A stretch of DNA of 64,000 nt from an uncultured Chromatiales bacterium (GTDB lineage: Bacteria > Bacteroidota > Ignavibacteria > SZUA-365), in the NCBI GenBank assembly GCA_964448285.1, contig CAYUWG010000008.1:18645-82644 (forward strand), read 5' to 3'. A program made the translations under genes and the position numbers. Position 1 is the first letter of the stretch. Every line of letters starts with the position of its first letter. The notes beneath the pieces are model-generated. The model was not told the origin of the DNA and did not search any database. It saw only the letters and a program-made list of their open reading frames with translations. Shown here piece after piece: positions 7,681 to 61,392 of this stretch.

Positions 7681-9750
7681 ATGACATTCAAGCACATATC
7701 GAAGCCCGGCTCTCCGGGATCAAGCAAATGGTTGAGCGGAAGACCGCATTGCGTTTCTTCTTGCATGGCGTTGCTCGTGATTCTCTTCGCAAGCACGGCG
7801 TTGGCGCAGAAGGTCAAAGTGACGCCGACGGATTTCGTTTATGCTTCTCCGAAAGGCATTTATGTTTTCTGTGGAAACACCTCTGCATCGAAGACGCACC
7901 CGCGTCTCGATACGGTCGGATATCGTATCGAGCGAAAAGCCGGAAAGGAACGATGGAAGCAGATAGCGGACGTTTCGTCCGTTGCAACGGTGGAAGAATT
8001 CAAGCGCGCGGTGAGCGAAGAAAAGCGTATGCAATGGACGACGTTCATGAAGCTGAAGACTGACGATTCACTCTGGCTGCACATTCGCGCATATCCGTCG
8101 CTCCGCATGTTGCCTTTCGGCGCGGACCGGGAAATGCTCCTTCCGCTCGGTTTGCTCTATCTCGATTCCGACGTGAAACAAGGCGTGAAGTACGAATACC
8201 GCGTCTCCGTTCTTCTGCTATCGGGAAAGACGGCAAATCCGAAAACGTCACAGCCGATCGTTGCGGGAAAGCCGTGGGGCATTCCGGCGATGCGCGCGGT
8301 CGGCACGGTGGAAACGGACTCCACGCTGCTCATCGAATGGGCATGCCCGAAAGTGTATCCGACGCCTCACGTTTATCACGTGTACCGCCGCATGACGGGA
8401 CAGGAAGACTTCAAGCTTCTTCCGATCAAAGGCATGCCGTCGGTGCGAAATGATTCGCTCGTCTGCACCGTTTATGACGAGAAGCTGAAGCGCAACCAGC
8501 AGTACGATTATTATATCGTCGCTGAAGACCTCGTCGAAAACCGCTCTCCAGAATCCGAGACGGTCACGGCATACACCGTGAACTTCAAGCGGCTTCCCTT
8601 GCCGATGCGCCAGCGCGCCATTCGCGATTCGATGGGGATCCGTCTCTCGTGGATGACGTCGGGATGGGATTACGTTCTCTCGACGCGTATCTACAGAAGC
8701 TCGAATTACAACGGGCCGTATGAGAAGATCGCGGAAGTCCCTTCGACCGATACGTCGTACTACGACCACGGCGCGCGCGGCATGATGCGCTACTACTACC
8801 GCATGAGAAGCGTATCCTACGGCGAACGCGAATCGCAACTCTCGATGCCGTTCATGGGCTACTGGAAAAACGAACTGCCGCCTGCGACGCCGCAGGGCGT
8901 CACGGCAAAGCCCATCAGGAACGGCGTCGAGATCGCGTGGGAGAAGAACGCGGAGGAAGACGTTGCGGGATATTACGTCTGCCGCGCGGCCGATAAGGAG
9001 GACAGCCTTCTCACGATCTCGGCGCTTGTCGAGAGCACGAGCTACGCAGACACGAGCGCCGACCTTCGCGGTTCGAAGGAATATCGATACGCGATCGTTG
9101 CGATGAACACGAGCCAGAAGAAGAGCCTCTTCTCGAACGTCGTCTATGCGCGCCCGTCGATTCCGACGAATCCCGCGCCGCCGCGAAGCATGTATGCATT
9201 CCCGCGCGAGAACGGAATCGCGCTCAACTGGAACGACCCGCGTGAGTACGAGGACGCCGTGATCGGCTATGCCCTCTATCGCGGCGTGAGAAGCGGCACG
9301 ACGATCAACTATCAGCGCCTCGCAACGTTGATGCGCGATCCCGAAATGGTTTCGTACTTCGACTCGACTGCGGAGAAGGGGAGGATGTATCACTATGCCG
9401 TCGCATCCATCGACGTGCATGGGTACGAAGGAATACGGAGCAAGAGCGCCGAAGCGATGATCCGCATCGAGTTACCGCCTGCACCCTCCGACGTGCACGC
9501 GACGATGCAGGAAGGCGGCGTGCTTCTCGAATGGGAAGAGATGCCGGAGGAAAAGATTACGCAGTTCGTGATTTACCGGAACGAGCGGGGCAAGGATGAA
9601 AAGAAAATCGCAACGGTGAAATATCCCGAGCACCAGTATATCGACCGCACGGCAAAGGGCGAAGGCGTGTACTACTATTGCATCGCGTCGATCAACAGCA
9701 GCGGCGTGGAAGGCGAGAAATCAGAGAAAGTTTATGCCGTGGTGAGATGA
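7681..9750 (+). CDS. fibronectin type III repeat protein (secreted)
   Basis: Signal peptide MALLVILFASTALAQ. At least five roughly 100-aa repeats each carry a W...GY..YR core (YHVYRRM, TRIYRSS, YYVCRAA, YALYRGV, FVIYRNE) characteristic of Fn3 domains. It is the third gene of the operon with the two upstream genes. Confidence 0.55.
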   Translation: MTFKHISKPGSPGSSKWLSGRPHCVSSCMALLVILFASTALAQKVKVTPTDFVYASPKGIYVFCGNTSASKTHPRLDTVGYRIERKAGKERWKQIADVSSVATVEEFKRAVSEEKRMQWTTFMKLKTDDSLWLHIRAYPSLRMLPFGADREMLLPLGLLYLDSDVKQGVKYEYRVSVLLLSGKTANPKTSQPIVAGKPWGIPAMRAVGTVETDSTLLIEWACPKVYPTPHVYHVYRRMTGQEDFKLLPIKGMPSVRNDSLVCTVYDEKLKRNQQYDYYIVAEDLVENRSPESETVTAYTVNFKRLPLPMRQRAIRDSMGIRLSWMTSGWDYVLSTRIYRSSNYNGPYEKIAEVPSTDTSYYDHGARGMMRYYYRMRSVSYGERESQLSMPFMGYWKNELPPATPQGVTAKPIRNGVEIAWEKNAEEDVAGYYVCRAADKEDSLLTISALVESTSYADTSADLRGSKEYRYAIVAMNTSQKKSLFSNVVYARPSIPTNPAPPRSMYAFPRENGIALNWNDPREYEDAVIGYALYRGVRSGTTINYQRLATLMRDPEMVSYFDSTAEKGRMYHYAVASIDVHGYEGIRSKSAEAMIRIELPPAPSDVHATMQEGGVLLEWEEMPEEKITQFVIYRNERGKDEKKIATVKYPEHQYIDRTAKGEGVYYYCIASINSSGVEGEKSEKVYAVVR

Positions 9751-10154
9751 TGCCGTGACGATATCCGGATTGTACAAGGACTTCCGGGTGATTGCACTGT
9801 ATTCTGTATTCCCTGTGCGAACCGCGTCCGCTCCATAAGCAGACTGAGTACAGCCTCTTACGAATTGACCGGTTTAGTTTTGTAAAAAAAATCACTTGCG
9901 AGCATGGCTTGCATCGAAGTGCTTTCTATTCTATTTTATGCCTGTTCCTTACGAACGATTGTCCCATACCACTATTTGTGGAGTCGTATTAAAGAATGCA
10001 CACTGCTTCAGAATGGAATGAACCCTTCCTTAAAACGAAAGCGATTCGAACTCTTCACCGGATGCAAGCATCGTGAACAACAGTAACACTTCTCGTGAAA
10101 TAGGCGCGTCTTGCCGGCTTGGAAATTTAGAGGTTCAAAGATGCGATTATGATG

Positions 10155-10201
10155 ACGGAAGGAATTTCTTCGTAGGCTTGAACCTCACGAGATAAGGTCG
10201 C
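10155..10201 (+). repeat. 47-bp direct repeat, copy A (remnant of a paralogous gene 3' end)
   Basis: acggaaggaatttcttcgtaggcttgaaCctcacgagaTaaggtcgc lies immediately upstream of the OMP gene start. It is near-identical to the last 47 nt of that gene (copy B). In frame it reads ...GRNFFVGLNLTR-stop. Confidence 0.8.
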
Positions 10202-10202
10202 A

Positions 10203-12656
10203 ATGAATGAAATGAGACTCTGCAAAAGAACTCACAAAATGAAACTGCTGCTGAGCATAATCGCGCTTCCTTTCATTATATCTGTCGCCCAGTCGCAGTA
10301 TTTGATTCGTGGCTTCGTACTCAGTTCGGACAACTCACAGCCCATACACTATGCAAACGTTCTACTGCTCGGGACCAACAGAGGTACAGTGACAAGCGCT
10401 GATGGGACCTTCCGAATCACGGTTGACACACTGCCTGTAATGATTAAAGTATCGTGTATCGGGTATAAGAGCAGCATCGTACGAGTGGATGGCTTGTACA
10501 CAATGAGAATTGAATTGAAACCGGAGGTTTACAAATTCGATGAAGTGACAGTCTCGCCCGACGATAGTCTTGCTCGTTGGATTGTTACAAAAGCTATTGA
10601 GGCTAAGCGAATACGAAATGCAATGCTCCACAGCTATAAAGTCGTTTCTCACTCGAAGTTGCGATTTCGTGTGGGTGCTCTCAATGGCGTAGATCATGAG
10701 GTACAAGAAGAGATACGCAAAACTATGAATGAAATTGTCGAAACGAGAACCACGGCATTTTGGATAAGTCCGGATAAGCACAAAGAAATCATTGAGGGAA
10801 GAAGACAAACGGATGTCTTTGGGACTAGTAAATTACGTTTAAACAGTATCACTGCACGGACAGACCTGTCGGCTGAGAAAATATTGATTGGTATTCTGGA
10901 GGGAGTTGGTCCGATATCGGAGCAAGGATTGGAAGCATATTACTACAGTTATTTAGGTATGACAGTCATCGATTCCACCGCTGTGCATAAAATCCGTGTT
11001 GTGCCTCGCTCACCGATAACACGAGGAGTATTCGGGTCGTTGTTCATATCGGATTCAACCTATTTACTCGTAAGTGCTGATGTGAGTCTTAGTGATGCAA
11101 TGATACTTCCACTTGGTGCCCAATGGTCAGTGGGAGTAAAACAACAGCATCGTCTCGTCGATAGTGTATTTTGGTTGCCTTCAGCAATGGTGATGTCAAT
11201 CAGGGTCACAGCGCGTATTATGGGCGCATATTTGGAAGTATTGGCATCATTATCCGCTGTTATGGAAGACTACCAGGTTAACGTGGATGGAATAGAGAAG
11301 GAGTTCGATGGCTATGGTATCGTCGTTTCAGATGACGCTGATGTGAAGGATGAGAGTTATTGGGACAAGCAATCGTTGATGGCGCTCACGAGTGATGAAA
11401 TTGAAGCATACAGCTATGACGACAGTATGCGTGTTGTGAAGGAGCATGAGAGTAAGACCTTCTTCCTGGAGGATGCTATAGGTGGGAAGACGATGTCGGT
11501 AAGCGGAATCGAGTATGATGTTCCCGGCATCTTCAATCTCTGGCATTATAACCGTGTCGAAGGTGCCTCCGTTGGTCTGCCCTTTTCGCTGTATTCGGAT
11601 ACTGGCAGAATAAGGAGCTTTCATCTCTCCGGATTCTATGGGTTTGCAGACAGGAAATTCAAGGTGCGCTCCGGAATGGAATTACGTCTTTCTAAGAAAT
11701 ACGGACATCTCCTTGAACTGAAGGCTTACGACGATGTATGGGAGTTGGATAGGGATCGGCAAATACGGTTTTCAACCGATACCCTGATCACGAGCTTCAC
11801 GAGTTTGCTCTATGCAGCAGAGCGGGATGACTACTATTACAGGAAGGGAGGTTCGATGACGTACAGCGGCTACACCCTTCCCTTTCTTCATCTCTCGCTC
11901 GATGGAAGATATGAGAAACATGAAAGCGCTTATAAGAATACTGATTGGAGTTTGTTCAACGAGAACAAGAAATTCCAATCCAATCCTGAAATAACGGCGG
12001 GAGAGTATTATTCCGTCGGCATGACGATGAAGCCGGATTTCAGGCCTTTAGCGTACAACGCCGGTATCATCGAACGGCTGGGAATACAAACCGTTCGATC
12101 ATCCCTATCGCTTCAATACACAAAGGGAGCGCTCGCCGATCGCACGATTGACTTCACGAAGTTCGTTGCGGACATATCCGGTGAAGAGTATTTCGGTCTC
12201 TTTGGCGTGACGAGGTGGTCGCTTTCGGGCGGTTACAGCAATAAGCCCTTACCGTTTCAGCACGTGTTCACAGTTCCCGGTTGCATCACGGGTTTGAGTG
12301 AAGAGCATCGCTTCAGGACGTTACAGTTTCGTGAGCTTGGCGGCGATGCGTTAGCCACAGCATATATCGAGCACACGATCGGCGTGCGGCCCTTCGCGGC
12401 CTTCAGAAATGTCCGCTTCATCGAGACATCCATGTGGGAGTTCGTTCTTTTTGGCGGCGCTGCGTGGTCGTCAATGCGGCAGGGAACGAGGAGCTTTCTC
12501 ACAGAGGAAATGTCGGTTGCAAAAAAGCCGTTCTTCGAGGTGGGTATCGGTTTGAAAGGATTGATGGGTGTGTTCCGCGTCGATTTTGCCTGGCGGCTGA
12601 ATCACTTCAACGGTAACGGAAGGAATTTCTTCGTAGGCTTGAATCTCACGAGATGA
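10203..12656 (+). CDS. CarboxypepD_reg-like domain plus DUF5686-like outer membrane protein
   Basis: The N-terminus after the signal peptide (IRGFVLSSDNSQPIHYANVLLLGTNRGTVTSADGTFRI) matches the carboxypeptidase regulatory-like beta-sandwich. The long remainder is OMP-like. This architecture is typical of FCB-group DUF5686 proteins. Confidence 0.5.
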   Translation: MNEMRLCKRTHKMKLLLSIIALPFIISVAQSQYLIRGFVLSSDNSQPIHYANVLLLGTNRGTVTSADGTFRITVDTLPVMIKVSCIGYKSSIVRVDGLYTMRIELKPEVYKFDEVTVSPDDSLARWIVTKAIEAKRIRNAMLHSYKVVSHSKLRFRVGALNGVDHEVQEEIRKTMNEIVETRTTAFWISPDKHKEIIEGRRQTDVFGTSKLRLNSITARTDLSAEKILIGILEGVGPISEQGLEAYYYSYLGMTVIDSTAVHKIRVVPRSPITRGVFGSLFISDSTYLLVSADVSLSDAMILPLGAQWSVGVKQQHRLVDSVFWLPSAMVMSIRVTARIMGAYLEVLASLSAVMEDYQVNVDGIEKEFDGYGIVVSDDADVKDESYWDKQSLMALTSDEIEAYSYDDSMRVVKEHESKTFFLEDAIGGKTMSVSGIEYDVPGIFNLWHYNRVEGASVGLPFSLYSDTGRIRSFHLSGFYGFADRKFKVRSGMELRLSKKYGHLLELKAYDDVWELDRDRQIRFSTDTLITSFTSLLYAAERDDYYYRKGGSMTYSGYTLPFLHLSLDGRYEKHESAYKNTDWSLFNENKKFQSNPEITAGEYYSVGMTMKPDFRPLAYNAGIIERLGIQTVRSSLSLQYTKGALADRTIDFTKFVADISGEEYFGLFGVTRWSLSGGYSNKPLPFQHVFTVPGCITGLSEEHRFRTLQFRELGGDALATAYIEHTIGVRPFAAFRNVRFIETSMWEFVLFGGAAWSSMRQGTRSFLTEEMSVAKKPFFEVGIGLKGLMGVFRVDFAWRLNHFNGNGRNFFVGLNLTR

Positions 12657-30723: not shown

Positions 30724-32394
30724 ATGTCAGACAATAAAATCATCTTCTCCATGATCGGCGTTGGCAAAGTCGTCCCGCCGAACCGATACATCCTCAAGGA
30801 CATCTACCTCTCGTTTTTCTACGGCGCGAAGATCGGCGTACTCGGTCTCAACGGCGCTGGGAAATCCACGCTGCTGAAGATCATCGCGGGGCTTGACCGC
30901 GACATCCTCGGCGAGATCACATCGGACAAAGGAATCACGTTCGGCTATCTGCCACAGGAGCCGGAGCTTGATCCAGGCAAGACCGTCCGCGAAGTGATCG
31001 AAGAGGGCGTGCAGGACGTCGTGAACGTCGTGAAGGAGTACGAAGCGGTGAACGCGGCCTTTGCAGAACCGGACGCGGACTTCGACGCACTGCTCGAGCG
31101 ACAAGCGAAACTGCAAGAACGGATCGACCATCTCGACGCATGGGATCTCGACAGCAAACTCGAAATGGCAGCCGATGCTTTGCGCTGCCCGTCGGGAGAA
31201 ACACCGGTGAATGTGCTTTCAGGCGGGGAGCGGCGTCGCGTCGCACTGTGCCGTCTGCTCTTGCAAAAGCCCGACGTGCTTCTCATAGACGAACCGACCA
31301 ACCATTTAGACGCGGAGTCCGTCGCGTGGTTAGAACAGCATCTTGCGAAGTACGAAGGCACCGTCATTGCCGTCACGCACGACCGCTACTTCCTCGACAA
31401 CGTCGCGGGATGGATTCTCGAACTCGACCGGGGCGAAAGGATTCCGTTCAAGGGCAACTACACTTCGTGGCTTGAACAGAAGCAGGAGCGCTTGCGCGTC
31501 GAAGAGAAGCAGGAGTCGAAACGGCAACGCATTCTCGCGCGCGAGTTGGAATGGGTGCGCATGAATCCCAAAGGCCGTCACGACAAGAGCAAAGCGCGCA
31601 TCGCGGCGTACGAAAAGCTTCTCACCGAAGAACAGGAGAAGCGCAACGAGGAGATGGAGATCTTCATTCCCGCAGGACCGCGACTCGGCGACGTCGTGAT
31701 CGAAGCGAAGGGCGTCTCGAAAGCGTTCGGGGACAGATTGCTGTTCGAGGGTTTGGACTTCTCGCTCCCACCCGGCGGCATCGTCGGCGTGATCGGTCCG
31801 AACGGCGCGGGTAAGACGACGCTCTTCCGCATGATCACGGGACAGGAACGTGCGGACGCGGGGACGTTCAAGATTGGCGAGACGGTGGCGCTCGGCTACA
31901 TCGACCAGAACAGACCGCTCGATGGGGAGAAGACGATCTATCAGGAAATCTCCGGCGGCGACGATCTCATTCGCGTGGGAAGCCGCGAGGTGAATGCGCG
32001 CAGCTACGTGGCGCGGTTCAACTTCAGCGGCAGCGACCAGCAGAAACAGGTGGGGCTGCTCTCCGGCGGCGAGCGCAACCGCGTCCATCTCGCGAAGATG
32101 TTGAAGGAGGGTCCGAACGTCCTCCTCCTCGACTAACCGACGAACGACCTCGACGTGAACACGCTCCGCGCGTTGGAAGAGGCGCTACTCAACTTCGCCG
32201 GATGCGCCGTGGTGATCTCGCACGACCGCTAGTTCCTCGACCGCATCGCGACGCACATACTCGCCTTCGAAGGCGACAGCCAGGTGCGCTGGTTCGACGG
32301 CAACTACGCGATGTATGAGAAAGACCGCAAGCAACGGTTGGGCATCGAAGCGGACAGGCCACACAGGATTAAGTACCGGGCGATGACGAGGTGA
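30724..32394 (+). pseudogene. ettA: ABC-F translational throttle EttA with two in-frame stop codons
   Basis: Two ABC cassettes are present (GLNGAGKST ... LSGGERRRVAL ... LLIDEPTNHLD; GPNGAGKTT ... [11 protein letters not shown]). The second Walker B reads LLLD-TAA-PTNDLD, with TAA at 32134-32136 where Glu is expected. HDR-TAG-FLDR has TAG at 32230-32232 where Trp is expected. The frame continues to the TGA at 32392-32394 with a canonical EttA C-terminus. Confidence 0.75.
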
Positions 32395-32536: not shown

Positions 32537-32743
32537 ATGAAATTCACAATAACCATATATCGCGATGAAGACGGCATGTTTATCGCCGAATGTCCTTCAA
32601 TTCCCGGTTGCATCAGCCAAGGAAGGACTGAGGAAGAGGCACAGTTGAACATTCAAGATGCCATCAAAGAAGCCCTTGAAGCTCGAGCTGAGTTGGGTAT
32701 GCCCCTTACGATTGCGACCAAACAAATCGATGTTGCAGTGTAG
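32537..32743 (+). CDS. hicB: HicB-family antitoxin
   Basis: MKFTITIYRDEDGMFIAECPSIPGCISQGRTEEEAQLNIQDAIKEALE (UPF0150/HicB fold). Its TAG stop overlaps the hicA ATG. Confidence 0.7.
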   Translation: MKFTITIYRDEDGMFIAECPSIPGCISQGRTEEEAQLNIQDAIKEALEARAELGMPLTIATKQIDVAV

Positions 32744-32971
32744 ATGCCGCCAGTTCCTCTTTTGCGCCCCTCGGAGGTCATCAAGATATTCGAGAAACTC
32801 GGATGGAGAGTAGTGCGCCAACGAGGCAGTCACATCATTCTCACCAAGACCGGACAGATTGCAACTCTGTCGGTTCCAAATCATGAACAGATCGCGCGTG
32901 GCACCCTACGCGGCTTGATCTCAAAAGCCGGATTGACCATCGAACAATTCCTCGAAGCATCTGGTCACTAA
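32744..32971 (+). CDS. hicA: HicA-family mRNA interferase toxin
   Basis: [26 protein letters not shown]....[23 protein letters not shown] is the canonical HicA/YcfA motif set. Confidence 0.75.
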
Positions 32972-33004
32972 CCTCTCGCCGTATTTACCCGCGCACCCGA
33001 AGCA

Positions 33005-33393
33005 ACGTGGCGCGGTTCAACTTCAGCGGGAGCGACCAGCAGAAACAGGTGGGGCTGCTCTCCGGCGGCGAGCGCAACCGCGTCCATCTCGCGAAGATGT
33101 TGAAGGAGGGTCCGAACGTCCTCCTCCTCGACTAACCGACGAACGACCTCGACGTGAACACGCTCCGCGCGTTGGAAGAGGCGCTACTCAACTTCGCCGG
33201 ATGCGCCGTGGTGATCTCGCACGACCGCTAGTTCCTCGACCGCATCGCGACGCACATACTCGCCTTCGAAGGCGACAGCCAGGTGCGCTGGTTCGACGGC
33301 AACTACGCGATGTACGAAAAGGACCGCAAGCAACGGTTGGGCATCGAAGCGGACCGGCCGCACAGGATTAAGTATCGGGCGATGACGAGGTGA
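33005..33393 (+). repeat. 389-bp perfect direct duplicate of the ettA 3' end (copy E2)
   Basis: Near-identical to 32006..32394. It carries the same TAA and TAG and ends at the same TGA. Confidence 0.9.
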
Positions 33394-33521
33394 TAAGTAT
33401 CTAACGGCTATGCGTTTCAGCGGCGCCGACGATCACCTACCGGCGGAGGTACCCCAGGCACCTGCGGCGTCCGCTGGAAAAGCTTGTTAGATTTTGCGGC
33501 ACACCTATCCTGTATTTGCCA

Positions 33522-34148: not shown

Positions 34149-34254
34149 GCCTACATAAATCTAACGCTCAGCATCAGAGGCGGCGCCCACCGCCGTCCGC
34201 TGCATGCTGTTGTTAGCCGGAAGATGCCGGTCAGTGTTATCGGGAATCTTTGGT

Positions 34255-36409: not shown

Positions 36410-37185
36410 CGGTTGCTGTGGTCCTTGGAGGCACGCCATGCAAGGTCATTGACAACCCACGAGGCGTACGAGCGTGGCAAGCGCGCGGTGGAAGCGCCCC
36501 ATTCCCTGATTCCATCTTGCCCGGGAGATAGTACTCCGATCCCGAGTCGTTGCGCGTCTCGGACCTGCTCCTCGGAAACGCGGGGCACGAGGACGTAGGA
36601 CTTCGATGCGAACCAGGTGTTCAGCCGTGCTTGGTTCAGCACGTCTGCCCACTTCCCGATTTTCGCCTCAACAGCGATAATCTTGGTCGCCGCGAAGGTG
36701 CGTTCGAAGGCGCACGGGAACCAGGCACGTCCGGCGGGTCGAACGAGCCCGGCACCGTGCAACCGTTCAATCGAGTATCGGGCGAAACGGGATCCGAAGC
36801 AGTCCTCAAGTTCTGAGTGGGCGGCTCTACGACGCTGGAAGACGTATTGCATGAGCCGCAGGTCGTCCGGTACGAGATCCATGCGCGATTCGTCCCAGTT
36901 GGCGGTGCGGGCGTCGCGCCACACCACGATGACGAGATCAGGGAACCCGGACTCTAGGCCGGGCTCGCGGAGCACCGTCACACGGCTATCCGGGGCATGC
37001 ACAAGCGGCATTGCGAAGATGAAACCATCCACGAGTTCCTGCTCTGGACCCCGCAAGGTGCGACGGAAGACGATGCCCTTCGGCGCCGAGTCGCGGTCAA
37101 CGATCGTTGGTCTCATGGTGGAGTGCACGTTGGTGATTCCCTCCCGTTCAATCACGCGTACTCGGTCCCTTCGTCCGGCCAACAA
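36406..37185 (-). CDS. hypothetical protein with possible PD-(D/E)xK-like signature (first gene of kinase operon)
   Basis: GFPDLVIVVW ... KIIAVEAKIGKW resembles the D / ExK strands of the restriction-endonuclease fold, with an unusually long spacer. The annotated start uses TTG; the first ATG is 23 codons downstream. Confidence 0.35.
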   Translation of the reverse strand: MLAGRRDRVRVIEREGITNVHSTMRPTIVDRDSAPKGIVFRRTLRGPEQELVDGFIFAMPLVHAPDSRVTVLREPGLESGFPDLVIVVWRDARTANWDESRMDLVPDDLRLMQYVFQRRRAAHSELEDCFGSRFARYSIERLHGAGLVRPAGRAWFPCAFERTFAATKIIAVEAKIGKWADVLNQARLNTWFASKSYVLVPRVSEEQVRDAQRLGIGVLSPGQDGIREWGASTARLPRSYASWVVNDLAWRASKDHSNR

Positions 37186-37600
37186 TAATTAGGCTGATCC
37201 GCATAAACCGCCGGTTTCTCATTTTCTTTCCGCATAAGACTCCATAGAATTATTTGTTCTTCGTCGCATCATGCCTCGACCGTTCGATGTATGTAATGTC
37301 GGGTTTGCAATTCATCATACATTTGCATCATCAGCTTGGGTCGTTTCGCTTGGGTCGTCATGTTGCTATTGTTGTCGCAAGATTACTTGGCACAACGATA
37401 GGAAATCAAAGCCTCAAAGTCAAGAAATGCGGGAAAATACTTTCTACTCCTTCATCTCGCACATACTTGCCTTCGAAGGAGACAGTCAGGTGCGCTGGTT
37501 CGACGGCAACTACGCGATGTACGAAAAGGACCGCAAGCAACGGTTGGGCATCGAAGCGGACAGGTCGCATCGGATCAAGCACAAGGCGATGATTGATAAC
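37181..37600 (+). repeat. composite repeat R1: 74-bp R-left element + IntI N-terminal remnant (30 codons, minus strand) + attI-like spacer with direct repeats + ettA 3' copy
   Basis: The minus strand reads [30 protein letters not shown]-stop and matches the start of the IntI-like ORF at 41880. The spacer carries TTGTCGCAAgattacTTGGCACAA. Then comes ettA-like coding ([42 protein letters not shown]) including GTTGGGC. Confidence 0.8.
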
Positions 37601-37622: not shown

Positions 37623-38732
37623 TTAAACGCCATGGTCTTTCTCCGGCTCTGCGTATGTATCCGGTTGTTTCGGTAGTGCTGCGATCGCGGCGGCGATTTC
37701 CCGGAGATCGTTAACCAACGAACGAACGACAACATCTTTTTCCTCTCCAACTGGGACCTCCAACGAGATGGCAAAATCGTGATCGCTGGCTACGGTAAGG
37801 ATGCCTTTTTTAGTTACCCACGATTCAATCAGCGGGCGCACTTCCTGTCCCCGGCCGAAATCATCATCAGCGAAGACAAGCCAGAGAGGTGTTGTTCCAT
37901 GTGTCTTCCAGAGACCAAAGTGAATCCCGAACCATGCGCCTGCGCTACCTGAGCTTTGAGTCCCCATCACTCTCACATAACGCCCAATTCGCTCCCACGA
38001 CGCTTGCGGACGAAGTCCGCTGATGAGGAGAACCTTCTCGGTTACTCCAAGATCTGTTGTTGCCTGAATGATTGCGCCAAGTTGAAGAACAAAAGCTGAT
38101 GTGCGTTGATCTGTGATCTCGACTCGCGAAACTGGAGCGAAGGCATCTGAGTCTGCCGTGTCACAGAGAGCACGTAATTGGATGAGGTCTCCAATGGTGG
38201 TTGGAGCGCTGATGCACTCGTACTCCAATACGGACAGGACATTCTCCCAAGATGTGAGCGCCAGAATAGGACCAAGTTGTGTATCTGCTGAACGTGCTAT
38301 AGCGACAGCAGCAACACGCTCGGTTGCGGGGATTCCCTCGACTTCAAGTCTCCTGCGCAATTCCCGCCACAGAGTCTGTTCACGTGCGGCCGGACCGACG
38401 ACGAGAAGAACCGTTGGCTGCTGGTACGTTGCAAGTTGCTTCAGGTACGAAACCGGTTGCTTGTCTGTCAGCCCCGCCCAGAACTTGTTCTCCACGAAAA
38501 CGCGTGGTTGATTGTCGGAGAATCCCCACAGATCCGGACGAATCGTTCCTTCGGTTTGCTGAGTCTTGAATCGCAACGACGGGAGTTCTGGGGCAACGCC
38601 TCGAAGAAGCTTCATTATACCTCCTCGAGCGGCTTCGCTCGATTCGAGAATGTATGCAAGCGCATCGGTCGCTACGTCTTCATTCACATTGGAAAACCGC
38701 TTCTGGATGATATGGCTGAGTACAGTCTGCAT
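37623..38732 (-). CDS. hypothetical protein with PD-(D/E)xK nuclease motif
   Basis: [23 protein letters not shown] gives D, then 12 aa, then ExK with hydrophobic strands, the classic restriction-endonuclease-fold core. Confidence 0.4.
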
Positions 38733-38741
38733 CTAATCGAG

Positions 38742-38939
38742 TTAATCATGCTCCTCAACGCCATACGCGTTTGCCAAACTCTTTTGGGACAACTCCAACC
38801 AGGCATTCTGTTCTTCGTCAGACTGCTCAGGAAAAACGATCACGAGAAGCCGAGAGTGTGGTTCTATTTTGAAGGGTTCATCCAACCGTATCTGCTCACC
38901 ATCGAAATGGGCCGCTAATGCTACTGTTTTCATTGACAT
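38742..38939 (-). CDS. small antitoxin-like protein (65 aa)
   Basis: Short acidic-C-terminal protein (EQSDEEQNAWLELSQKSLANAYGVEE) lying 9 nt upstream of the PD-(D/E)xK gene. Its size and composition resemble small type II antitoxins. The family is not identified. Confidence 0.3.
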   Translation of the reverse strand: MSMKTVALAAHFDGEQIRLDEPFKIEPHSRLLVIVFPEQSDEEQNAWLELSQKSLANAYGVEEHD

Positions 38940-39003
38940 TTTCTCCTTAGGTGATAGTATCTATCTGTCTAATGAATTCCAGACCAACTCGCTGGCATAA
39001 TAG

Positions 39004-39216
39004 TCAGGCTGCAACCTGAATGTAGGACGAGTACGCCGATGGTTCAGGGGCGTCGTAACCCTCCATTCGCAAGCCTTCGAGATGAAATTCGATGGCTTCC
39101 TGAATATTTCGTTCGACTTCCTCTTTCGTTCTACCGGTAGAGCCACAACCCGGCACGTCCGGAGAAAATGCAGAGTAACCCGTACGTGTCTTTTCAACGA
39201 CGATAAGAAATTTTTT
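39004..39216 (-). CDS. HicB-like antitoxin (orphan)
   Basis: MKKFLIVVEKTRTGYSAFSPDVPGCGSTGRTKEEVERNIQEAIEFHLEGL is a UPF0150/HicB fold. No HicA partner is adjacent. Confidence 0.6.
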   Translation of the reverse strand, partial: KKFLIVVEKTRTGYSAFSPDVPGCGSTGRTKEEVERNIQEAIEFHLEGLRMEGYDAPEPSAYSSYIQVAA

Positions 39217-39278
39217 CATGGTTTCAATCCAGCTTGTTTGAGGATGTTCTGAGAACACGTCAGACCATTGTGATACGT

Positions 39279-39872
39279 TCAAGCTGCTTCAGCGTGCAGT
39301 CTCAAACCAAGAGCCCCAATCACCTTGAGGATGGTATCGAAATCAGGAGTACGTTCACCGGACAATGCCTTATAGAGACTTTCGCGTGAAAGACCAGCGT
39401 CACGCGCAACCTGTGCCATGCCACGTGCACGGGCAATATCTCCAAGCGCCTTTGCGATAAATGCGGCATCACCATTGGCTTCTTCCAGACATGCTTCTAA
39501 GTAAGCCGCCATTTCCTCAGGCGTTCGGAGATGTTCGGCGACATCATATCGAGTGGTTTTGGTTTTTCTCATCATGGGCTCCAACAAGTTTCGCGCGAGG
39601 CTACGAGCTGTCTTGATGTCGGTGGCTTGGGTACTTTTATCACCGCCTGCCAGCAGAATTACCATCTCGCGTCCGCGCTTTGTGAAATAAACCCGATAAC
39701 CGGGACCGTAATCGATCCGCAACTCGGAGACGCCATCACCAACTGGTTTGACATCTCCAGCATTTCCTGCCGCCAAGCGCTCAACTCTGGATAGGACACG
39801 CGCTCGTGCCTGAATGTCGCTCAGTCCATCGAGCCACTGCACGAAATTCTCTGTTTTGCGAATCTCAATCAC
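39279..39872 (-). CDS. in-frame fusion of RelE/Gp49-like addiction-module killer and HTH antidote
   Basis: Residues 1-100 (MIEIRKTENFVQWLDGL...GPGYRVYFTKRGREMVILLAGGDKSTQ) match the putative addiction-module killer family. Residues 105-197 (MMRKTKTTRYDVAEHLRTPEEMAAYLEA...GLSRESLYKAL) match the cognate antidote family. The junction is cccATGATGAga. Confidence 0.6.
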   Translation of the reverse strand: MIEIRKTENFVQWLDGLSDIQARARVLSRVERLAAGNAGDVKPVGDGVSELRIDYGPGYRVYFTKRGREMVILLAGGDKSTQATDIKTARSLARNLLEPMMRKTKTTRYDVAEHLRTPEEMAAYLEACLEEANGDAAFIAKALGDIARARGMAQVARDAGLSRESLYKALSGERTPDFDTILKVIGALGLRLHAEAA

Positions 39873-39937
39873 GGAAGGAATGTAGCCTAACGGCTACACA
39901 TTGTCAAATGATTATTCTACGCTCAGAGACTACTTGG

Positions 39938-40051
39938 GTCGCCCGCTGGCTCGACGGCAACTACTCCTATGTACGAGAAAGACCGTAAGCAGCGCTTAGG
40001 CATCGAACCGGACGGCCGCTCAGGATTAAGAATCGGGCGATGACGAAGTGA
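39938..40051 (+). repeat. diverged ettA 3'-end copy E3
   Basis: Encodes RWLDGNYSYVRERP?KQRLGIEPDGRSGLRIGR-stop; ends at TGA 40049-40051. It is the most diverged copy. Confidence 0.6.
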
Positions 40052-40247
40052 CAAGCTTCTAACTGCCCTGCGTGTAAGCCGCGCCGGTATGATATTTTGA
40101 TTGAATGCGAGATCTTAGTTGAGTCGACTTAACACGCGGGTTAGGCGTCTCATCTCGCCATAAGATTTTCATGCCAAACCCGCGATCGTCGGCTATTCGA
40201 AGTCTTAGCGCCTACGTCCCGTATGTAAGGTCTAATCACTGCCGATG

Positions 40248-41351
40248 TCATCGTTTTTCACTTCCTGAATGTATTTCCAATAGACTCTTTCTATGAAGAA
40301 TACCAAAGCGTTGCCAAGCATATATATAGTCTCCAACAACTTCTATTCTAGCAATCTCATCAACTTGAATACCTGAGTCCGATTCTGTTCCAACTGGAAT
40401 CCAGCTTTTGCCGCTGTTTGTTGAAACAAATACTCCAATATTGGTGCCACAGAATATGTAAATTCCGAATGTCGCAATCGAGCTTACAAACGCAACCCTG
40501 TCGGATAATCCTATAGAACATCTAACCCAACTCTCTCCATTGTCGGAAGATATGTATAATCCATCATTGGTTCCAGCAAAAAGCACGTTTCCCAATGCAG
40601 CCAGTGAATTAATCATCCGGTTATATAGTCCGGAATTAACTCCAATCCAGTTTTTTCCACCATCCCTGGATAAGAATATCCCATTGTCCGCTCCGACAAA
40701 TATAAGATTTTCGCACCTAAGGACAGTGTTGACTCTACTGCTATACTCCTTCAATGTGCCAAATCCTTCGTCACCAGAAAAGAATACAACGCGTTTCTCG
40801 TCCCATCTTTTAATATCATCTTTTACCGCCATATACAATCTTCCTTCATATGTGACAGCATATATTTCATTATTGAATACATATATGTGCCGTATACCGC
40901 TTTTGGAGAGCACGCTATCTGGAGATATATTGGATGGAGTAGTTCGTTCTCGCTCTGAGGACATATTTACGCTGATCGAATAACTGATAGCTTGCCACCA
41001 GTTCCATCCCCTGTCTAAAGAGATAAACAGACCCTTCTGTGTTCCGCAAATCAAAATCGAATCTATCGTGATAAACCGTGTAATACCTACATTGGTAGGT
41101 AATTTTCCGCCGTATTTCCATTCTGAAAGAAAACCTGGTTGGCTTGGAATTGAGGGTGCGCCATTTTCATTCGCAGCGAATATTCCATGAGAATGAGCAA
41201 CCACCAACAACCTACCGGATTGCCGAATATCAACGATAGGCCCACCCCGTGCCATAGTCAACTGCCATTGCGAAATTGCTTTCGAATATGGTGCAGTGAA
41301 TACGATTGCGGCAATTATAACTGCTGGTTTTACTGCTAATCTACAATACAT
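40248..41351 (-). CDS. secreted BNR-repeat beta-propeller protein
   Basis: Signal peptide, then BNR motifs [32 protein letters not shown]. The gene is AT-rich (about 40 % GC) and its start overlaps the intI remnant's stop. Confidence 0.55.
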
Positions 41352-41880
41352 AGTGCGGTAAATTCTGATTTATTAATTCAATCGGGCTTCGTGCTGCCGA
41401 ATGCCCCCTGTTAAGTACATGGGTGTAAATCATCGTGGTTTTAATATCGCGGTGGCCTAAAAGCTCTTGGACAGTCCGAATGTCATAACCGCTTTCGAGC
41501 AAGTGTGTCGCGAACGAATGCCGGAACGTGTGACAGGTTACCCTCTTCGTCATGCCTGCTTTCATTGCGGCGATCCGCGCGCGAATGAGTTCGCACAGAT
41601 CACCGACCGCTAGTCCGATAACGTTGCGATACAAAAAGAGTAGAGCAGAGAGAGCTTGATTCTGTGTCGAAGCGCTTACTTTTTCCTCAACAGCAAGATG
41701 TGTCAGAAAAGCATTGATCTCAGGTTCCGACATCTCTTGCGGATGGCGCACATCATTGAAATGAACGTAGCGTTTCACCAAAAAGCAGTACACCTCCTCC
41801 GTACGATGGCTGTAATGTCGAACCTGCAATGCTTCATGCATTTGCATCATCAGCTTTGGTCGCTTCGCTTGGGTCGTCAT
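41341..41880 (-). pseudogene. intI: integron-type tyrosine recombinase (IntI-like) with a large internal deletion
   Basis: The N-terminal 100 aa ([15 protein letters not shown]...[31 protein letters not shown]) match the IntI core-binding domain. The ORF then joins directly to box II / C-terminus [43 protein letters not shown]. The catalytic Arg/Lys/His patch region is missing. Total length is 179 aa versus about 320 expected. Confidence 0.7.
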
Positions 41881-42085
41881 ATTGCTATTGTTGTCGCAAG
41901 ATTACTTGGCGCAACGATAGGGAATCAAAGAGTCAATGTCAAGAAATACCCGAAAAAACTTTCTTACTCACTTCATCTCGCACTTTCTCGCCTTCGAAGG
42001 CGACAGTCAGGTGCGCTGGTTCATCGGCAACTACGCGATGTATGAGAAAGACCGCAAGCAGCGTTTAGGCATCGAAGCGGACCGT
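41881..42085 (+). promoter_or_regulatory. attI-like region of R2: direct repeats TTGTCGCAA-6 nt-TTGGCGCAA, then ettA 3' arm to the GTT core
   Basis: It lies immediately upstream of, and divergent from, the IntI-like start. Two 9-bp direct repeats sit about 20 bp from the ATG. The ettA-like arm ([35 protein letters not shown]) ends shortly after GTTTAGG. Copies of the same layout occur in R1, R3 and R4. Confidence 0.5.
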
Positions 42086-42122
42086 CGGGTTCGCCCTGCT
42101 TTAAGTCGGCACGGCGCGGTCG

Positions 42123-42742
42123 CTATTCACGGGGCCACTTCCGGAGCGCTGCTTCAAAGCAGACATTGAGGAACTGCTCCACGATATCGATCACTGCAAC
42201 GACGAGCTTTGAATCAGCGAGTAGGGCGTCCACGACAACTGGACCCAAGGCTTTCCGCCGAATGAACGACTGGACCGCTCCTTTACCAGCGAAGTCAGCG
42301 AGTTGACCGCCGTTGTGAACAAGGCAGTTACGAACCTCAACAACACCCCGGACATCTTCGAGCAACTTTGACGGAAGGGCCAGGTCCATCCGGGCGACCT
42401 TCTGAGCATAGACAAGGAAGCGATCGAGCCACGAACCCCGCAGCTCGCGGAGGGACAGCTGTAGGTTCTCGGCATCACGAAGGCTCTGCGCGAAGTCTCT
42501 GAGATCTCGCTCAAGGAGACCAACTGTGACGACAATCACCGAGCTGTAGAGAATGCTGGGAAACGGCTCCTCGTAGAGGTAGGAATCCTCGTTCCCGAAG
42601 GCATCGTGCTTCCCAACCAAGCGCGTCGCTGATTCCGCGAGGAACTCCTCGACCGTGGTCAGATAGGCGCGAAGCTCATCAACGTGGATCAAGGCATCAA
42701 CGGAGCAGCCGAAGAACTGAAGACCGGGTCCGATGCTAGCCA
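42123..42742 (-). CDS. Abi_2 (AbiD/AbiF)-like HEPN-domain protein
   Basis: Rx4H motif EVRNCLVHNGG near the C-terminus in a predicted helical protein. The likely start is MASIGPGLQ at 42742. Confidence 0.4.
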
Positions 42743-43503
42743 TGTCCTCTCTTGTGTCGCCTAACGTTGTGCCGCTCAGCCGCGAGCGGCGGCCCATTGC
42801 TTCCGCACTCGCCCGGCGCCCGCCCGCCGCTCGTCTGCTGCAGCGGCGTGTTATGCTTCCTCTCGGCTTTCTCACCAGCTCTCTCGACGATCTTTAGGAT
42901 ATCGCTGGCGACAACGATTCTTTCGAACGCCGACAGAAAGTCCATGTCGACATCCCGGTGCGAACAGGGATTCTTGTAGTAGCCGAATGCGCCAGCGACG
43001 TATTGACACAGAGCCTCCCTTTCGGCCTTTGGAAGCGCCGGGTCGGTCAAGGGCCCGTTCTCAGGGTGGAAGGCCCTGCGGATTAGAGTCACGCCAATTT
43101 CGTCGGCACTGGACTTGGTCCACTTCCTGATCCCAGTCTCTACCGCCTTAAAGGCCTTGAGGACGGCACTTTCGTAATCGCCCGAATTCAACATGTGAAG
43201 GGAAACCTTGGCTATTCGAGGATGGATGTACATCTCCGGTACGAGTACGTAATCCCGAACAACGCTCCTAAACTCGCGCTCAAGGAACCTGAACCCGACC
43301 TTCGTTGGGTAAAAGGTTTCGTCGCCTTCGTCATCGTACCCACGTTGGTATTGACGTATATCTATGTGAGTCTCTGGACTAGCTTTGTACTTGACGCGCG
43401 AAAAGCGAACCGGCCGATATCCCCCGGCGTTCGCCTCGGCAATGACGTGCTGATACTCGATCTTTGCTTCGACTGCGCTCTTGTCCTTTGTCTTCCTCTT
43501 CAT
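42736..43503 (-). CDS. TIGR02391/Hypoth_Ymh-like HEPN-related protein
   Basis: The C-terminal 130 aa show AFKAVETGIRK ... LIRRAF ... YVAGAFGYYKNPCSHRD ... FLSAFERIVVASDILKIV. This matches the conserved FxAVE...RNPxAH-type blocks of that family. The likely start is ATG 43503 (MKRKTKDK). Confidence 0.45.
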   Translation of the reverse strand: MKRKTKDKSAVEAKIEYQHVIAEANAGGYRPVRFSRVKYKASPETHIDIRQYQRGYDDEGDETFYPTKVGFRFLEREFRSVVRDYVLVPEMYIHPRIAKVSLHMLNSGDYESAVLKAFKAVETGIRKWTKSSADEIGVTLIRRAFHPENGPLTDPALPKAEREALCQYVAGAFGYYKNPCSHRDVDMDFLSAFERIVVASDILKIVERAGEKAERKHNTPLQQTSGGRAPGECGSNGPPLAAERHNVRRHKRGHG

Positions 43504-43528
43504 CGCCCATTCTCTCCGCGGTAGGCCC

Positions 43529-43602
43529 AACAATAATTAGGCTGATCCGCATAAACCGCCGGTTTCTCGTTTTCTGTCCGCATAAGACTCCATAGAATTA
43601 TT
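43529..43602 (+). repeat. solo copy of 74-bp R-left element
   Basis: aacAATAATTaggctgatCCGCATAAaccgccggtttctcgttttctgtCCGCATAAgactccatagAATTATT has a 7-bp terminal inverted repeat and an internal direct repeat. It abuts the start of the Ymh-like gene. Confidence 0.7.
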
Positions 43603-43682
43603 CTACATAGTTGTCATGACCGGCAGCAAAAAGAGGCGCGAGGTAGGCGCGACGCTTTTTGCTGTCCGTGTTGATGGCGCTG

Positions 43683-44006
43683 TTAACGTGCATTTGCGCC
43701 CAACATCGTTTGAAATGGTGCGGAGGGAAGGAATCGAACCTTCCGCGTTCTCTCTTGGAAGGAATGTATTTGCTCACACAACCATCTCTCGCTTGGGTTG
43801 GAGTTTTTTTCCACCAGGCTCCGCAGGAACGCAGCTCCGCACCAAACACATGCCACGACAAAATGAAGTATGGCGTTTGAGTTTTTCATGATTACCTCCT
43901 TCGCAGTTTCAATGAAGCTGTTTACGGAATGGTAGATGTCCAACCCAAACGAGATTTCGATGTGTGCCTCAATACAAACCTCTTTACCCAAGCTCGTGTG
44001 ATTCAT
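43683..44006 (-). CDS. hypothetical small protein between two R-left copies
   Basis: 107-aa ORF with an internal hydrophobic segment (MKNSNAILHFVVACVWCGAAFL). Coding status is uncertain. Confidence 0.25.
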   Translation of the reverse strand: MNHTSLGKEVCIEAHIEISFGLDIYHSVNSFIETAKEVIMKNSNAILHFVVACVWCGAAFLRSLVEKNSNPSERWLCEQIHSFQERTRKVRFLPSAPFQTMLGANAR

Positions 44007-44026
44007 GGTTGCTGCACGCTAACAAT

Positions 44027-44384
44027 AATTAGGCTGATCCGCATAAACCGCCGGTTTCTCATTTTCAGTCCGCATAAGACTCCATAGAATTATTTGTTCT
44101 TCTTGGCATCATGCCTCGACCGTTCGATGTATGTAATGTCGGGTTTGCAATTCATCATACATTTGCATCATCAGCTTTGGTCGTTTCGTTTGGGTCGTCA
44201 TGTTGCTATTGTCGTCGCAAGATTACTTGGCGCAACGATAGGGAATCAAAGAGTCAATGTCAAGAAATACCCGAAAAAACTTTCTTACTCACTTCATCTC
44301 GCACATACTCGCCTTCGAAGGCGACAGTCAGGTGCGCTGGTTTGACGGCAACTACGCGATGTATGAGAAAGACCGCAAGCAACG
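44027..44384 (+). repeat. composite repeat R3 (R-left + IntI 5' remnant + attI-like spacer + ettA arm truncated exactly at the GTT core)
   Basis: Same layout as R1. The ettA-like sequence ...gaccgcaagcaacG stops at 44384 and is followed by unrelated sequence (actagtccgtg) where the other copies have GTTGGGC. Confidence 0.8.
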
Positions 44385-44429
44385 ACTAGTCCGTGCCAGG
44401 TGCTGCGGTTTTTATCCGGGTGCTCAACT

Positions 44430-44792
44430 TCATTTATCCGGGATGCGTTCAGAGATGCGAATGCGGCCGGGTTGGACAACGATAAAGCAGCCCTCAATCA
44501 TCGTACGATGTGTATCAATAAATTCCACGACGGTTCGAACCATGGCTCTCCGGGCTTTGGCCGGAAATCGGATGAAAATGACGCCAGATGATTTGGCAAC
44601 GCTGGCAAAAACCAGTTGTCCAAAGTCTTTATCTTCAGTCAAAAGAATACGGGATTCCGCGAGGGTAAGCTCAATGATCGCGTCATCGGTCGCTCCAGGT
44701 CTTTCGTCGCAGACCGCAACGACATCGTGACCCATGGTACGTAATGCATGTACAAGGGAGAAATCGCAGTTCTCATCCGCAAGGAAACGCAT
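44430..44792 (-). CDS. DUF5615 PIN-like toxin-family protein
   Basis: [30 protein letters not shown]...[14 protein letters not shown] matches the [11 protein letters not shown]5615 consensus. Confidence 0.6.
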
Positions 44793-44807
44793 CCGTCTCG
44801 AAACAGT

Positions 44808-45044
44808 CTAATTCGAGGGTCCCAACAAAACAGTTTCCTCATGCGCCAGAGTATCAGCGGCATACATGGCAGCTGCACGGATATCCTCCGGAGTCAGACC
44901 GGGGTATGCGTCAAGGAGATCGTCCTCAGTGGCGCCTTCGCCGAGCTTGCGTAGGATAAGCTCCACTGTGATGCGCGTTCCCCGGATCACCGGTTTTCCC
45001 AGCATGATCTTGGGATTCATTTCGATTCTGCTTGAGATAGTCAT
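44808..45044 (-). CDS. DUF433 antitoxin-family protein
   Basis: GKPVIRGTRITVELILRKLGEGATEDDLLDAYPGLTPEDIRAAAMYAA matches the DUF433 consensus. It is paired with the DUF5615 gene 15 nt downstream. Confidence 0.6.
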   Translation of the reverse strand: MTISSRIEMNPKIMLGKPVIRGTRITVELILRKLGEGATEDDLLDAYPGLTPEDIRAAAMYAADTLAHEETVLLGPSN

Positions 45045-45154
45045 TGTCTTACCTCCTGTTTCGAGTATAGTTTAACCAATCACTTCAACAGAACAAAAAG
45101 AGAGGGTGTGCGGATAGTCGTTATTGTCCCGTGGTGAACATGCAGGTGTAACAG

Positions 45155-45273
45155 ATAGTCAGGTGCGCTGGTTCGACGGCAACTACGCCATGTATGAGAA
45201 AGACCGAAAGCTGCGCTTAGGCATCGAAGCGAACATTCCGTATCCGATCAGGTATCGCGCGATGTCAAGTTGA
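45155..45273 (+). repeat. diverged ettA 3'-end copy E4
   Basis: Encodes [38 protein letters not shown]-stop. Confidence 0.65.
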
Positions 45274-46044: not shown

Positions 46045-46200
46045 CAGGTTTCCGTACATCGTGATTGATCGTCCATAGACAATTGGTTCGTGTATTCGTA
46101 TCATCAGTTTCTGTCTTTTCGTTTGCGTTGTCATGCTGCTATTGTTGTCGCAAGATTGCTTGTCGCAACGCCAAGGAAACCGAAGATTCAGTGTCAAAGG
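46045..46200 (+). repeat. R4: degenerate IntI 5' remnant plus direct repeats TTGTCGCAA-6 nt-TTGTCGCAA
   Basis: The minus strand reads MTTQTKRQKLMIRIHEPIVYGRSITMYGNL..., matching the IntI N-terminus. The spacer carries two perfect 9-bp direct repeats. No ettA arm follows. Confidence 0.6.
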
Positions 46201-46219
46201 ATACGTGACCAGTCACCTC

Positions 46220-46663
46220 TCACCCCTGTATCTCAGGCTCTACAAGCTTCGCAAGTTGTTCGAGTGATTCCTGCCAGCCTAAGTAGCACATCTCCGGTGG
46301 GATGACGTCGGGCACTCCTTCCTGTGCGACGTTCAGCTCCGTGCCGCACGAAACTGCTTTCAGCGAAACGGTCACCTGCATCACGTCGGGCAAATTCGGG
46401 TCATCGAAAACGTCGGTGTGTCGGATGCGTTCGTTCATTATCAATTCGAGATATTCACCACCGAATGAGTGGCTCTGTCCCGTCGTGAAGTTCGTGAAGG
46501 ACATCTTGTACGTCCCGCCGACCTTCGCATCGAGATGATGGATGGTGCCGGTGAATCCGTGCGGCGGGAGCCACTTGCACATCGCGGCCGGATCGAGAAA
46601 CGCACGATAGACTTTTTCGGGTGCGGCCTTGATAACGCGGTGGAGTCGGATGGTGTAGCTCAT
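46220..46663 (-). CDS. SRPBCC/AHSA1-like domain protein
   Basis: 147 aa with the N-terminus IRLHRVIKAAPEKVYRAFLDPAAMCKWLPP, typical of Activator-of-Hsp90-ATPase-homolog-like SRPBCC proteins. Confidence 0.55.
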   Translation of the reverse strand: MSYTIRLHRVIKAAPEKVYRAFLDPAAMCKWLPPHGFTGTIHHLDAKVGGTYKMSFTNFTTGQSHSFGGEYLELIMNERIRHTDVFDDPNLPDVMQVTVSLKAVSCGTELNVAQEGVPDVIPPEMCYLGWQESLEQLAKLVEPEIQG

Positions 46664-61317: not shown

Positions 61318-61392
61318 TGGGGCGTCGCCAAGTGGTAAGGCATCGGCCTTTGGAGCCGACATTCGGAGGTTCGAATCCTCCCGCCCCAGCCA
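61318..61392 (+). tRNA. tRNA-Gln (anticodon TTG)
   Basis: tggggcgtcgccaagtggtaaggcatcggccTTTGGagccgacattcggaggttcgaatcctcccgccccagcca has a 7-bp acceptor stem, anticodon loop cTTTGGa and T-loop GGTTCGAATCC with an encoded CCA. It resembles bacterial tRNA-Gln closely. Confidence 0.85.

Follow-up and report, generated by a model that had tools for sequence, protein, structure and literature searches.

How does the end of one protein gene come to be found seven times along the same chromosome, no two copies wholly alike? The question is raised by a 64,000-nt stretch of DNA (the window) from an uncultured Chromatiales bacterium, in which ettA (energy-dependent translational throttle, ABC-F; 30724–32394, plus strand) is followed by further copies of its own last ~45 codons, interspersed with the remains of an integron. 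The answer that we favour, and consider moderately probable, is that units carrying a replacement gene end were inserted one after another at the 3′ end of ettA.

The seven copies and their substitution pattern

All seven tail copies lie on the plus strand, with starts at 32252, 33251, 37458, 39938, 41979, 44300 and 45154. Six were matched by a degenerate pattern for the conserved block, for which the chance expectation is none, and the seventh, E3, was added by a repeat search (repeat family D5). The first copy ("native", 32252–32394) is the one presently joined to the ettA gene. E2 is a duplicate of ~390 nt of the ettA 3′ region (33005–33393, with its start near 33005; repeat families D1 and D3), in which the tail proper occupies 33251–33393. 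R1 (37458–37592) adjoins an integrase-gene spacer and has a 4-nt deletion before TGATAA. The range 39938–45273 contains the other four: E3 (39938–40051), with one insertion and one deletion; R2 (41979–42086), in which the distal part is gone and homology to the ettA tail ends after ..GCGGACCG; R3 (44300–44385), which ends exactly after ..AAGCAACG; and E4 (45154–45273), the most diverged copy, which is in frame with its stop in register.

The differences among the copies are mainly synonymous. At the core, native, E2 and R1 read caa cgg ttg ggc, R2 reads cag cgt tta ggc, E3 cag cgc tta ggc and E4 ctg cgc tta ggc, exactly as quoted in the first-pass annotation of this DNA; in R3 the core is caa cga cta gtc, at which point homology stops. 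The third-position variation that the annotation had described in the conserved block is also real (TAT/TAC, GAG/GAA, AAA/AAG, CGC/CGT/CGA and GCG/GCC). The tails were aligned in codon register and Nei-Gojobori counts were summed over pairs, all counts resting on ~45 codons. The proximal 34 codons contain 104 synonymous (Sd) and 40 non-synonymous (Nd) differences, with a ratio of non-synonymous to synonymous differences per site (pN/pS) of 0.09; the ratio is 0.39 in the distal 12 codons and 0.15 overall. Variable sites at codon positions 1, 2 and 3 number 12, 8 and 21. When the proximal differences are reduced to roughly unique events, ~14 synonymous and 7 non-synonymous changes are left, a synonymous excess with a binomial P of 7e-5 against an expectation of 25% synonymous and of 0.0016 against 33%. 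The proximal non-synonymous changes are all private to the displaced copies R2, E3 and E4, and the distal tail of R1 and E4 holds several non-synonymous changes too.

These results support the view that most of the tail divergence arose under coding constraint. The first-pass annotation had taken the same pattern to mean that each copy was once the live end of an ettA gene. The coding constraint agrees with that claim, but it is indistinguishable from that of a spare end carried and selected on an element. The annotation was mistaken in adding that the copies were not decaying in place. Decay after displacement is plain: E3 carries a +1 indel (GCG to TCCT) and a −1 indel (GAC AGG to GAC-GG) and its own frame meets a stop, R1 has its 4-nt deletion, and R2 and R3 are truncated.

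A 19-residue peptide, or near variants of it, is common to all seven tails and to an eighth found on contig L082, from another sequencing run. Distances among these eight tails amount to 1–11% of the DNA, with a mean pS of 0.36 and a mean pN of 0.036. In contrast, the nearest live ettA tails of other taxa are at least 14–18% away from the window tails, with a much higher pN. Since the group is tight and the live tails of other taxa are farther off, the source of the tails is a single narrow lineage of ettA ends, or a single family of elements, and not distant species. The proposal that the tails came in on elements from different strains or species is thus upheld in part: the surrounding context fits displacement by incoming elements, but tails that differ by only 1–11% do not fit an origin in distant species.

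The gene to which the native tail is joined is itself a pseudogene. Residues 1–470 score 778.7 bits against the EttA model NF008775 (cutoff 599), and the frame is interrupted by two in-frame stops: a TAA at 32134–32136 replaces the expected Walker-B catalytic Glu of the second ABC domain (LLLD*PTN), and a TAG at 32230–32232 replaces an expected Trp (HDR*FLD for HDRWFLD). The closest live EttA homologues, from Ignavibacteria/Bacteroidota-like bins, are intact and 88% identical. Because ettA is otherwise intact and retains this identity to live homologues, its inactivation is recent. The E2 duplicate has both stops (33133–33135 and 33229–33231) and was therefore made or homogenised after the inactivation. 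Native and E2 are identical over 284 nt that include both stops (32032–32315) and then show six synonymous differences; this identity clearly indicates that gene conversion and homologous recombination between tails acted too. The tail that the first-pass annotation calls "native", now attached to this pseudogene, probably represents the latest import and not the original end. The source contig's own proteins (P0001, the 470-aa ettA reading frame) have no exact match in protein records, and the two stops are thus known from one assembly. The top EttA matches P0121 and P0122 were rejected as closer relatives, being internally duplicated misassemblies.

Integron units and their counterparts in other lineages

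The region between ettA and an AHSA1-like gene (46220–46663) is a degenerate chromosomal integron region of the "inverted-intI" type. Within its ~14 kb there are four attC sites, four truncated copies of the integrase gene intI and three of a conserved attI motif, along with a number of toxin-antitoxin modules. From left to right, the native tail is followed by a hicBA module and E2; an array, an attI with an intI spacer, and R1; toxin-antitoxin genes and E3; a cassette, an intI spacer and R2; cassettes, an attI with an intI spacer, and R3; a toxin-antitoxin pair and E4; and finally a remnant array and the fourth intI, whose spacer leads straight into the AHSA1-like gene. The seven tails thereby delimit units, as direct repeats of the 3′ end of the target gene that flank the inserts.

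The intI remnants are all on the minus strand. The remnant in the R1 unit (37255–37361; repeat D4) comprises the first ~35 codons, and that at 44095–44201 has the same truncation. The longest (41341–41880) encodes 179 aa and, when aligned to full-length IntI, shows an internal deletion of approximately residues 100–255. Its best family is TIGR02249 (2.9e-63, in two stretches), for which its 214 bits fall below the cutoff of 265 because of this deletion, whose span includes the IntI-specific segment; in full-length relatives, which are 70–79% identical, this segment is present. The fourth remnant (46085–46134; repeat D4, 79%) is the most diverged. Apart from the 179-aa copy, the remnants are fragments of 15–35 codons, and with four of four intI copies truncated no functional platform with an intact integrase is present. 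The fourth intI has a spacer that continues directly into the stop of the AHSA1-like gene, no ettA tail intervening, and this platform may be the original resident. Among public metagenome proteins, P0003, P0005, P0009, P0011, P0030, P0048 and P0068 are likewise integron integrases from which nearly the same middle portion is missing; such proteins are many, measure 170–210 aa and lack roughly residues 100–255, with slightly different boundaries.

Upstream of every intI remnant lies a conserved spacer, also on the minus strand, with a sigma70-like intI promoter, predicted by eye as TTGACA-17 nt-TATCGT, and an inverted repeat. The copy at 37362–37457 was delimited by alignment, and further copies of the module are at 41881–41978 and 44202–44299 and, upstream of the fourth intI, at 46135–46219. 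The inverted repeat, GTTGCGCCAAG..CTTGCGACAAC, stands just before the intI start codon and may be a repressor operator.

The four attC sites are found on the minus strand at 33395–33496, 34155–34222, 40053–40150 and 42755–42860. They were described with a covariance model built from these same four sites, so that the support it lends is internal only: the first site, a training member, scores 90.3 bits (E = 3e-19), the third 80.4 bits and the fourth 57 bits. All four have R″/R′ boxes (ATCTAAC..GTTAGAT at 33395–33496), and six of their 15 consensus pairs show compensatory changes. The extra bases are on the 3′ arm of the plus strand, and the cassettes are therefore read on the minus strand, as is intI. 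The model finds no further significant match in the 64 kb; applied to other loci, for which it is too narrow, it gives weak matches in L061 and L021 only. A scan of 28–52 kb against Rfam at E ≤ 1 returned no family.

A 76-nt repeat, D6, is read as a candidate attI from its sequence and position. On the minus strand it lies directly downstream of truncated intI at 37179–37254, where it ends in ..GGATCAGCCTAATTATTG|TT, and downstream of the intI remnant 44095–44201 at 44019–44094; the copy at 43527–43602 has no intI adjoining. After the end of the repeat, ..ATTATTG|TT, the sequence is a different one at each of its three copies. Its motif GGATCAnnCTAAnTATTGTT has three matches in the window against an expectation of zero; L083, L084 and L021 also have it, 150–170 nt downstream of an intact related intI. 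A reading of D6 as a hairpin was dropped, as folding gave it no support.

The tails meet these units in two ways. R1, R2 and R3 each lie ~100 nt upstream of an intI start, divergent from it and separated from it by the conserved spacer. The three have a common junction, spacer|CGCACAT..tail, from which homology to ettA is near-perfect. To the left of CGCACAT, the similarity to ettA fades to ~40% with a one-codon gap, which is the pattern expected of an attachment-site arm that is not needed to rebuild the gene. In E2 and E3, on the other hand, the tail is followed by its stop, 6 nt and an attC, with homology continuing into the attC (repeat D7); this arrangement corresponds to the distal end of a cassette array on the minus strand. 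The candidate crossover region, CGCACATACTCGCCTTCGAAGGCGA (32252–32276), holds a perfect 16-bp palindrome, TCGCCTTCGAAGGCGA, at 32261–32276 within the codons for LAFEGD. Two further junctions, the end of R3 at ..AAGCAACG|ACTAG (44380–44386) and the end of the hicBA segment at ..GAAGCAACG|TGGCGCGG (32995–33006), fall at the same tail-core nucleotides, and both read ..CG|TTGCTT on the minus strand.

The junction recurs in a second sample. Contig L082 contains an R2-type unit of 93% identity with the same internal intI deletion, a complete tail that represents a different allele, and unrelated DNA on either side. In an independent assembly of the source run, L001, positions 38335–41922 of the window are matched exactly (100%), which establishes that the context of E3 is real.

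A clean natural replacement of the tail is observed in a related lineage. For 11,637 nt, contigs L165 and L166 are identical throughout. From the palindrome centre, TCGCCTTCGA|AGGCGA, as far as the stop they differ by ~30%, and past the stop their DNA is unrelated. The EttA proteins of the pair (P0123 and P0124) have identical bodies and tails that are only 79% identical; of the 170 EttA pairs whose bodies are at least 95% identical, no other stands out in this way. Since other relatives have tails that match that of P0124, the imported tail is the one in L165; on its left side it begins at the point where the R units become homologous to ettA. This sharp boundary is seen in the related lineage; for the window's own lineage no sister genome was located, the nearest EttA being only 88% identical.

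In a planctomycete, a metagenome-assembled genome of Planctomycetia (L061; JAPLNR010000060), positions 8173–11260 hold an intact inverted-type integron at the ettA 3′ flank, a second and unrelated case of an integron in this position. Its intI starts 178 nt past the ettA stop on the same strand and is followed by GTTAGGC and cassettes. Among the best 80 integron-integrase loci of species-representative genomes, no ettA tail was found near intI except in L061, which has a full ettA upstream. The 80 metagenome ettA 3′ ends among the matches listed (67–82% tail identity) showed neither an adjoining intI nor tail duplicates. Two groups of apparent tail integrations were set aside: short "EttA C-terminal" reading frames that made up most of the matches to an R-unit frame, since the two examined in long contigs are frameshift fragments of long-read assemblies, and IMG/VR matches, which are full-length ettA genes standing last in provirus calls.

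Proposed serial insertion and competing explanations

In the explanation that we favour, two kinds of unit would have been inserted: small toxin-antitoxin segments, and integron platforms that on the minus strand comprise promoter spacer, intI, attI and attC-ended cassettes. A separate copy of the final ~45 ettA codons would come in with every unit, perhaps on a circle joined by site-specific recombination. A crossover near the left edge of the tail segment, in CGCACATaCTCGCCTTCGAAGGCGA, would join the incoming tail to the gene and leave the previous tail stranded downstream, on the far side of the insert; successive events of this kind would give the observed order. The tails would diverge while translated, or while selected as a spare end that rebuilds EttA, which would account for their mainly synonymous differences, and decay would start only after displacement. 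Such a model covers the synonymous bias, the degenerate left arm, both types of junction, the L082 junction and the L165/L166 boundary. A bolder version, in which the whole integron (promoter, intI, attI and cassettes) moves as one unit and the spare ettA end saves the gene, is unlikely. Insertion would then be site-specific, its target being the short palindrome in the ettA codons for LAFEGD.

Several observations weigh against serial insertion. The substitution counts come from only about 45 codons, and ettA is a pseudogene, so that the latest events took place with no selection for a working tail. The E copies have different left boundaries, with E2 reaching 260 nt further into ettA and E3 and E4 beginning only past the palindrome, on its right side, so that not every junction can be traced to one and the same crossover point. 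R1 and R3 have one intI truncation in common, and R2 and L082 one internal deletion, which indicates that dead platforms were copied or moved by a process other than their own integrase. No functional recombinase is encoded, intI being the only recombinase gene in the units and truncated in all four copies, and the junction region lacks an integron core motif. Finally, the window's own lineage yielded neither an intact unit nor an empty site, and no circular junction either.

The main rival starts from a single ancestral accident in which the intI spacer became fused to ettA codon ~510. Unequal homologous recombination between tails would then have amplified and rearranged the resulting block (tail, array, intI and spacer) where it stood, the live tail serving as donor for gene conversion, so that the displaced tails would be snapshots of a single gene end as it evolved and not imports. 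It would explain why R1, R2, R3 and L082 have an identical spacer|tail junction, why R1 and R3 have one intI truncation and R2 and L082 another, and why all tails form one tight clade, and the 284-nt identity of native and E2 including both stops resembles conversion or homologous recombination. However, a synonymous divergence of up to 0.4–0.6 within one array would require very long persistence, the flanking cargo is wholly different from unit to unit, and L082 has the same junction with unrelated DNA on both sides. The replacement tail of L165/L166, at ~30% difference, is moreover too diverged for homologous recombination over 130 nt. Amplification in place is regarded as improbable. In-place duplication with neutral decay of a single segment fares far worse. 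Indels and truncations do occur in several copies, and the first-pass annotation had named indels and frame loss, together with a ratio near 1, as the signs of such decay. Frame loss is indeed seen in E3, but pN/pS is 0.09 in the proximal part and 0.15 overall, far from 1, and the synonymous excess (P = 7e-5) refutes this account; because the substitutions are mostly synonymous, neutral decay of one duplicated block is excluded for practical purposes.

Two other accounts were weighed. The tail might itself be an integron recombination site, attI-like or a secondary "attG" site, with cgG|TTGGGC as a GTTRRRY box at which IntI inserts cassettes and with the codon variation in (Q/L)RLG reflecting hybrid sites. 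GTTGGGC fits this box in native, E2 and R1, and two junctions (the R3 end and the end of the hicBA segment) fall exactly at the core. Nevertheless, E3 and E4 read cgC TTA GGC with no G before TT, R2 reads GTTTAGG, and the tail has no attC-like fold (z ~0 on both strands). Duplication of the ~85 nt on the left side of the core is not what cassette insertion would produce. The L165/L166 boundary is 75 nt upstream of the core, and the true attI motif is downstream of intI and not in the tail. This account is therefore thought quite implausible. An assembly chimera, in which strain variants of one locus were threaded through the shared tail repeat, is more doubtful again. The sequence does come from a metagenome bin, its repeats are 76–99% identical, and the independent assembly breaks within the repeated spacer. 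However, the tail copies differ mutually and hence are not one collapsed node, and E3 has non-ettA DNA on both sides in the independent assembly at 100% identity. R-type junctions, which recur in L082, cannot come from threading variants of an ettA-tail-cargo arrangement.

Serial insertion has a well-known counterpart. Genomic islands and other integrative elements insert in the 3′ ends of genes (tRNA, tmRNA and some protein genes), bring a replacement 3′ end and accumulate as tandem arrays. Like these islands, the window units are bounded by direct repeats of the target 3′ end with a recombinase gene beside one repeat, the repeat arm that is not needed for the gene is degenerate, older ends are displaced and decaying, and close genomes exist with and without a replaced end (L165/L166). 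Unlike them, the units have the protein gene ettA as their target and an integron integrase as their only recombinase, and neither an excision product nor an intact element was seen. We know of no integron integrase that integrates its own platform.

Sedentary chromosomal integrons with an "inverted integrase" occur in Treponema, Chlorobi and similar bacteria. The window resembles them in having intI on the cassette strand, attI downstream of intI, attC sites with R″/R′ boxes and extra-helical bases, and cargo rich in toxin-antitoxin modules. It differs in having four platforms in 14 kb, with every intI truncated and only four attC sites, and in that its units are parted by the ends of a neighbouring gene and do not form one continuous array. 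A cluster of attC sites lacking an integrase is termed a CALIN. The attC-bounded cassettes without a working integrase recall CALINs and degraded integrons, but intI remnants and attI copies are still there, and the ettA tails are without a counterpart in the description of CALINs. The combination of 3′-end accretion with inverted-integrase anatomy, and ettA as the target, appears to be new; a full-text search for literature linking ettA with integrons gave nothing relevant.

Integrons are known to move by hitch-hiking on transposons, plasmids and conjugative elements, and the movement of chromosomal integrons between genomes is poorly explained. Here, platforms are bracketed by ends of a host gene in the manner of islands. 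If the units integrate as such, they would offer a testable site and substrate for whole-integron transfer, and the stack of displaced ends would be a datable record of the order of insertion. If the unlikely case of whole-integron mobility were true, some "sedentary" chromosomal integrons would be self-transferable integrative elements with a protein-gene target, and the ettA 3′ flank is also the position of the integron in the L061 genome. If only local duplication took place, the locus would be an ordinary, though tidy, repeat-driven rearrangement in a decaying integron.

Cargo and minor features

The cargo includes three groups of toxin-antitoxin genes. A hicB-hicA module on the plus strand (32537–32971) lies between the first tail and E2, with Pfam matches to HicB_lk_antitox (3.3e-8) and HicA_toxin (3.6e-18). 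Between R1 and E3, toxin-antitoxin-type genes on the minus strand (38742–39872) comprise a RelN-like reading frame of 65 aa, a HicB-like gene and a Gp49+HI1420 fusion. A DUF5615 (PIN-like)/DUF433 pair, also on the minus strand (44430–45044), separates R3 from E4.

Positions 39884–39900, between the toxin-antitoxin genes and E3, form a perfect hairpin (TGTAGCC-TAAC-GGCTACA) that overlaps GCCTAAC/GTTAGGC boxes and may be a minimal or collapsed recombination site. On the minus strand at ~43713–43750, between two attI copies that are 492 nt apart, is a tRNA 3′ fragment with a T arm (GGAAGGTTCGATTCCTTCC), the acceptor CTCCGCA and CCA, and with no 5′ half. ARAGORN makes no call there. The fragment is unlike the tRNA-Gln at 61318 and has the appearance of an attachment site left behind by another integrative element. 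In L165, where the contig breaks off in short tandem repeats (CTCGGTCTGCGTGGGTCA..) and so shows only part of the insert, the features beyond the replaced tail (11765–11890 and 12400–12481) include an imperfect hairpin of ~130 nt rich in GGAA/TTCC, followed by an AhpC/TSA-like gene.

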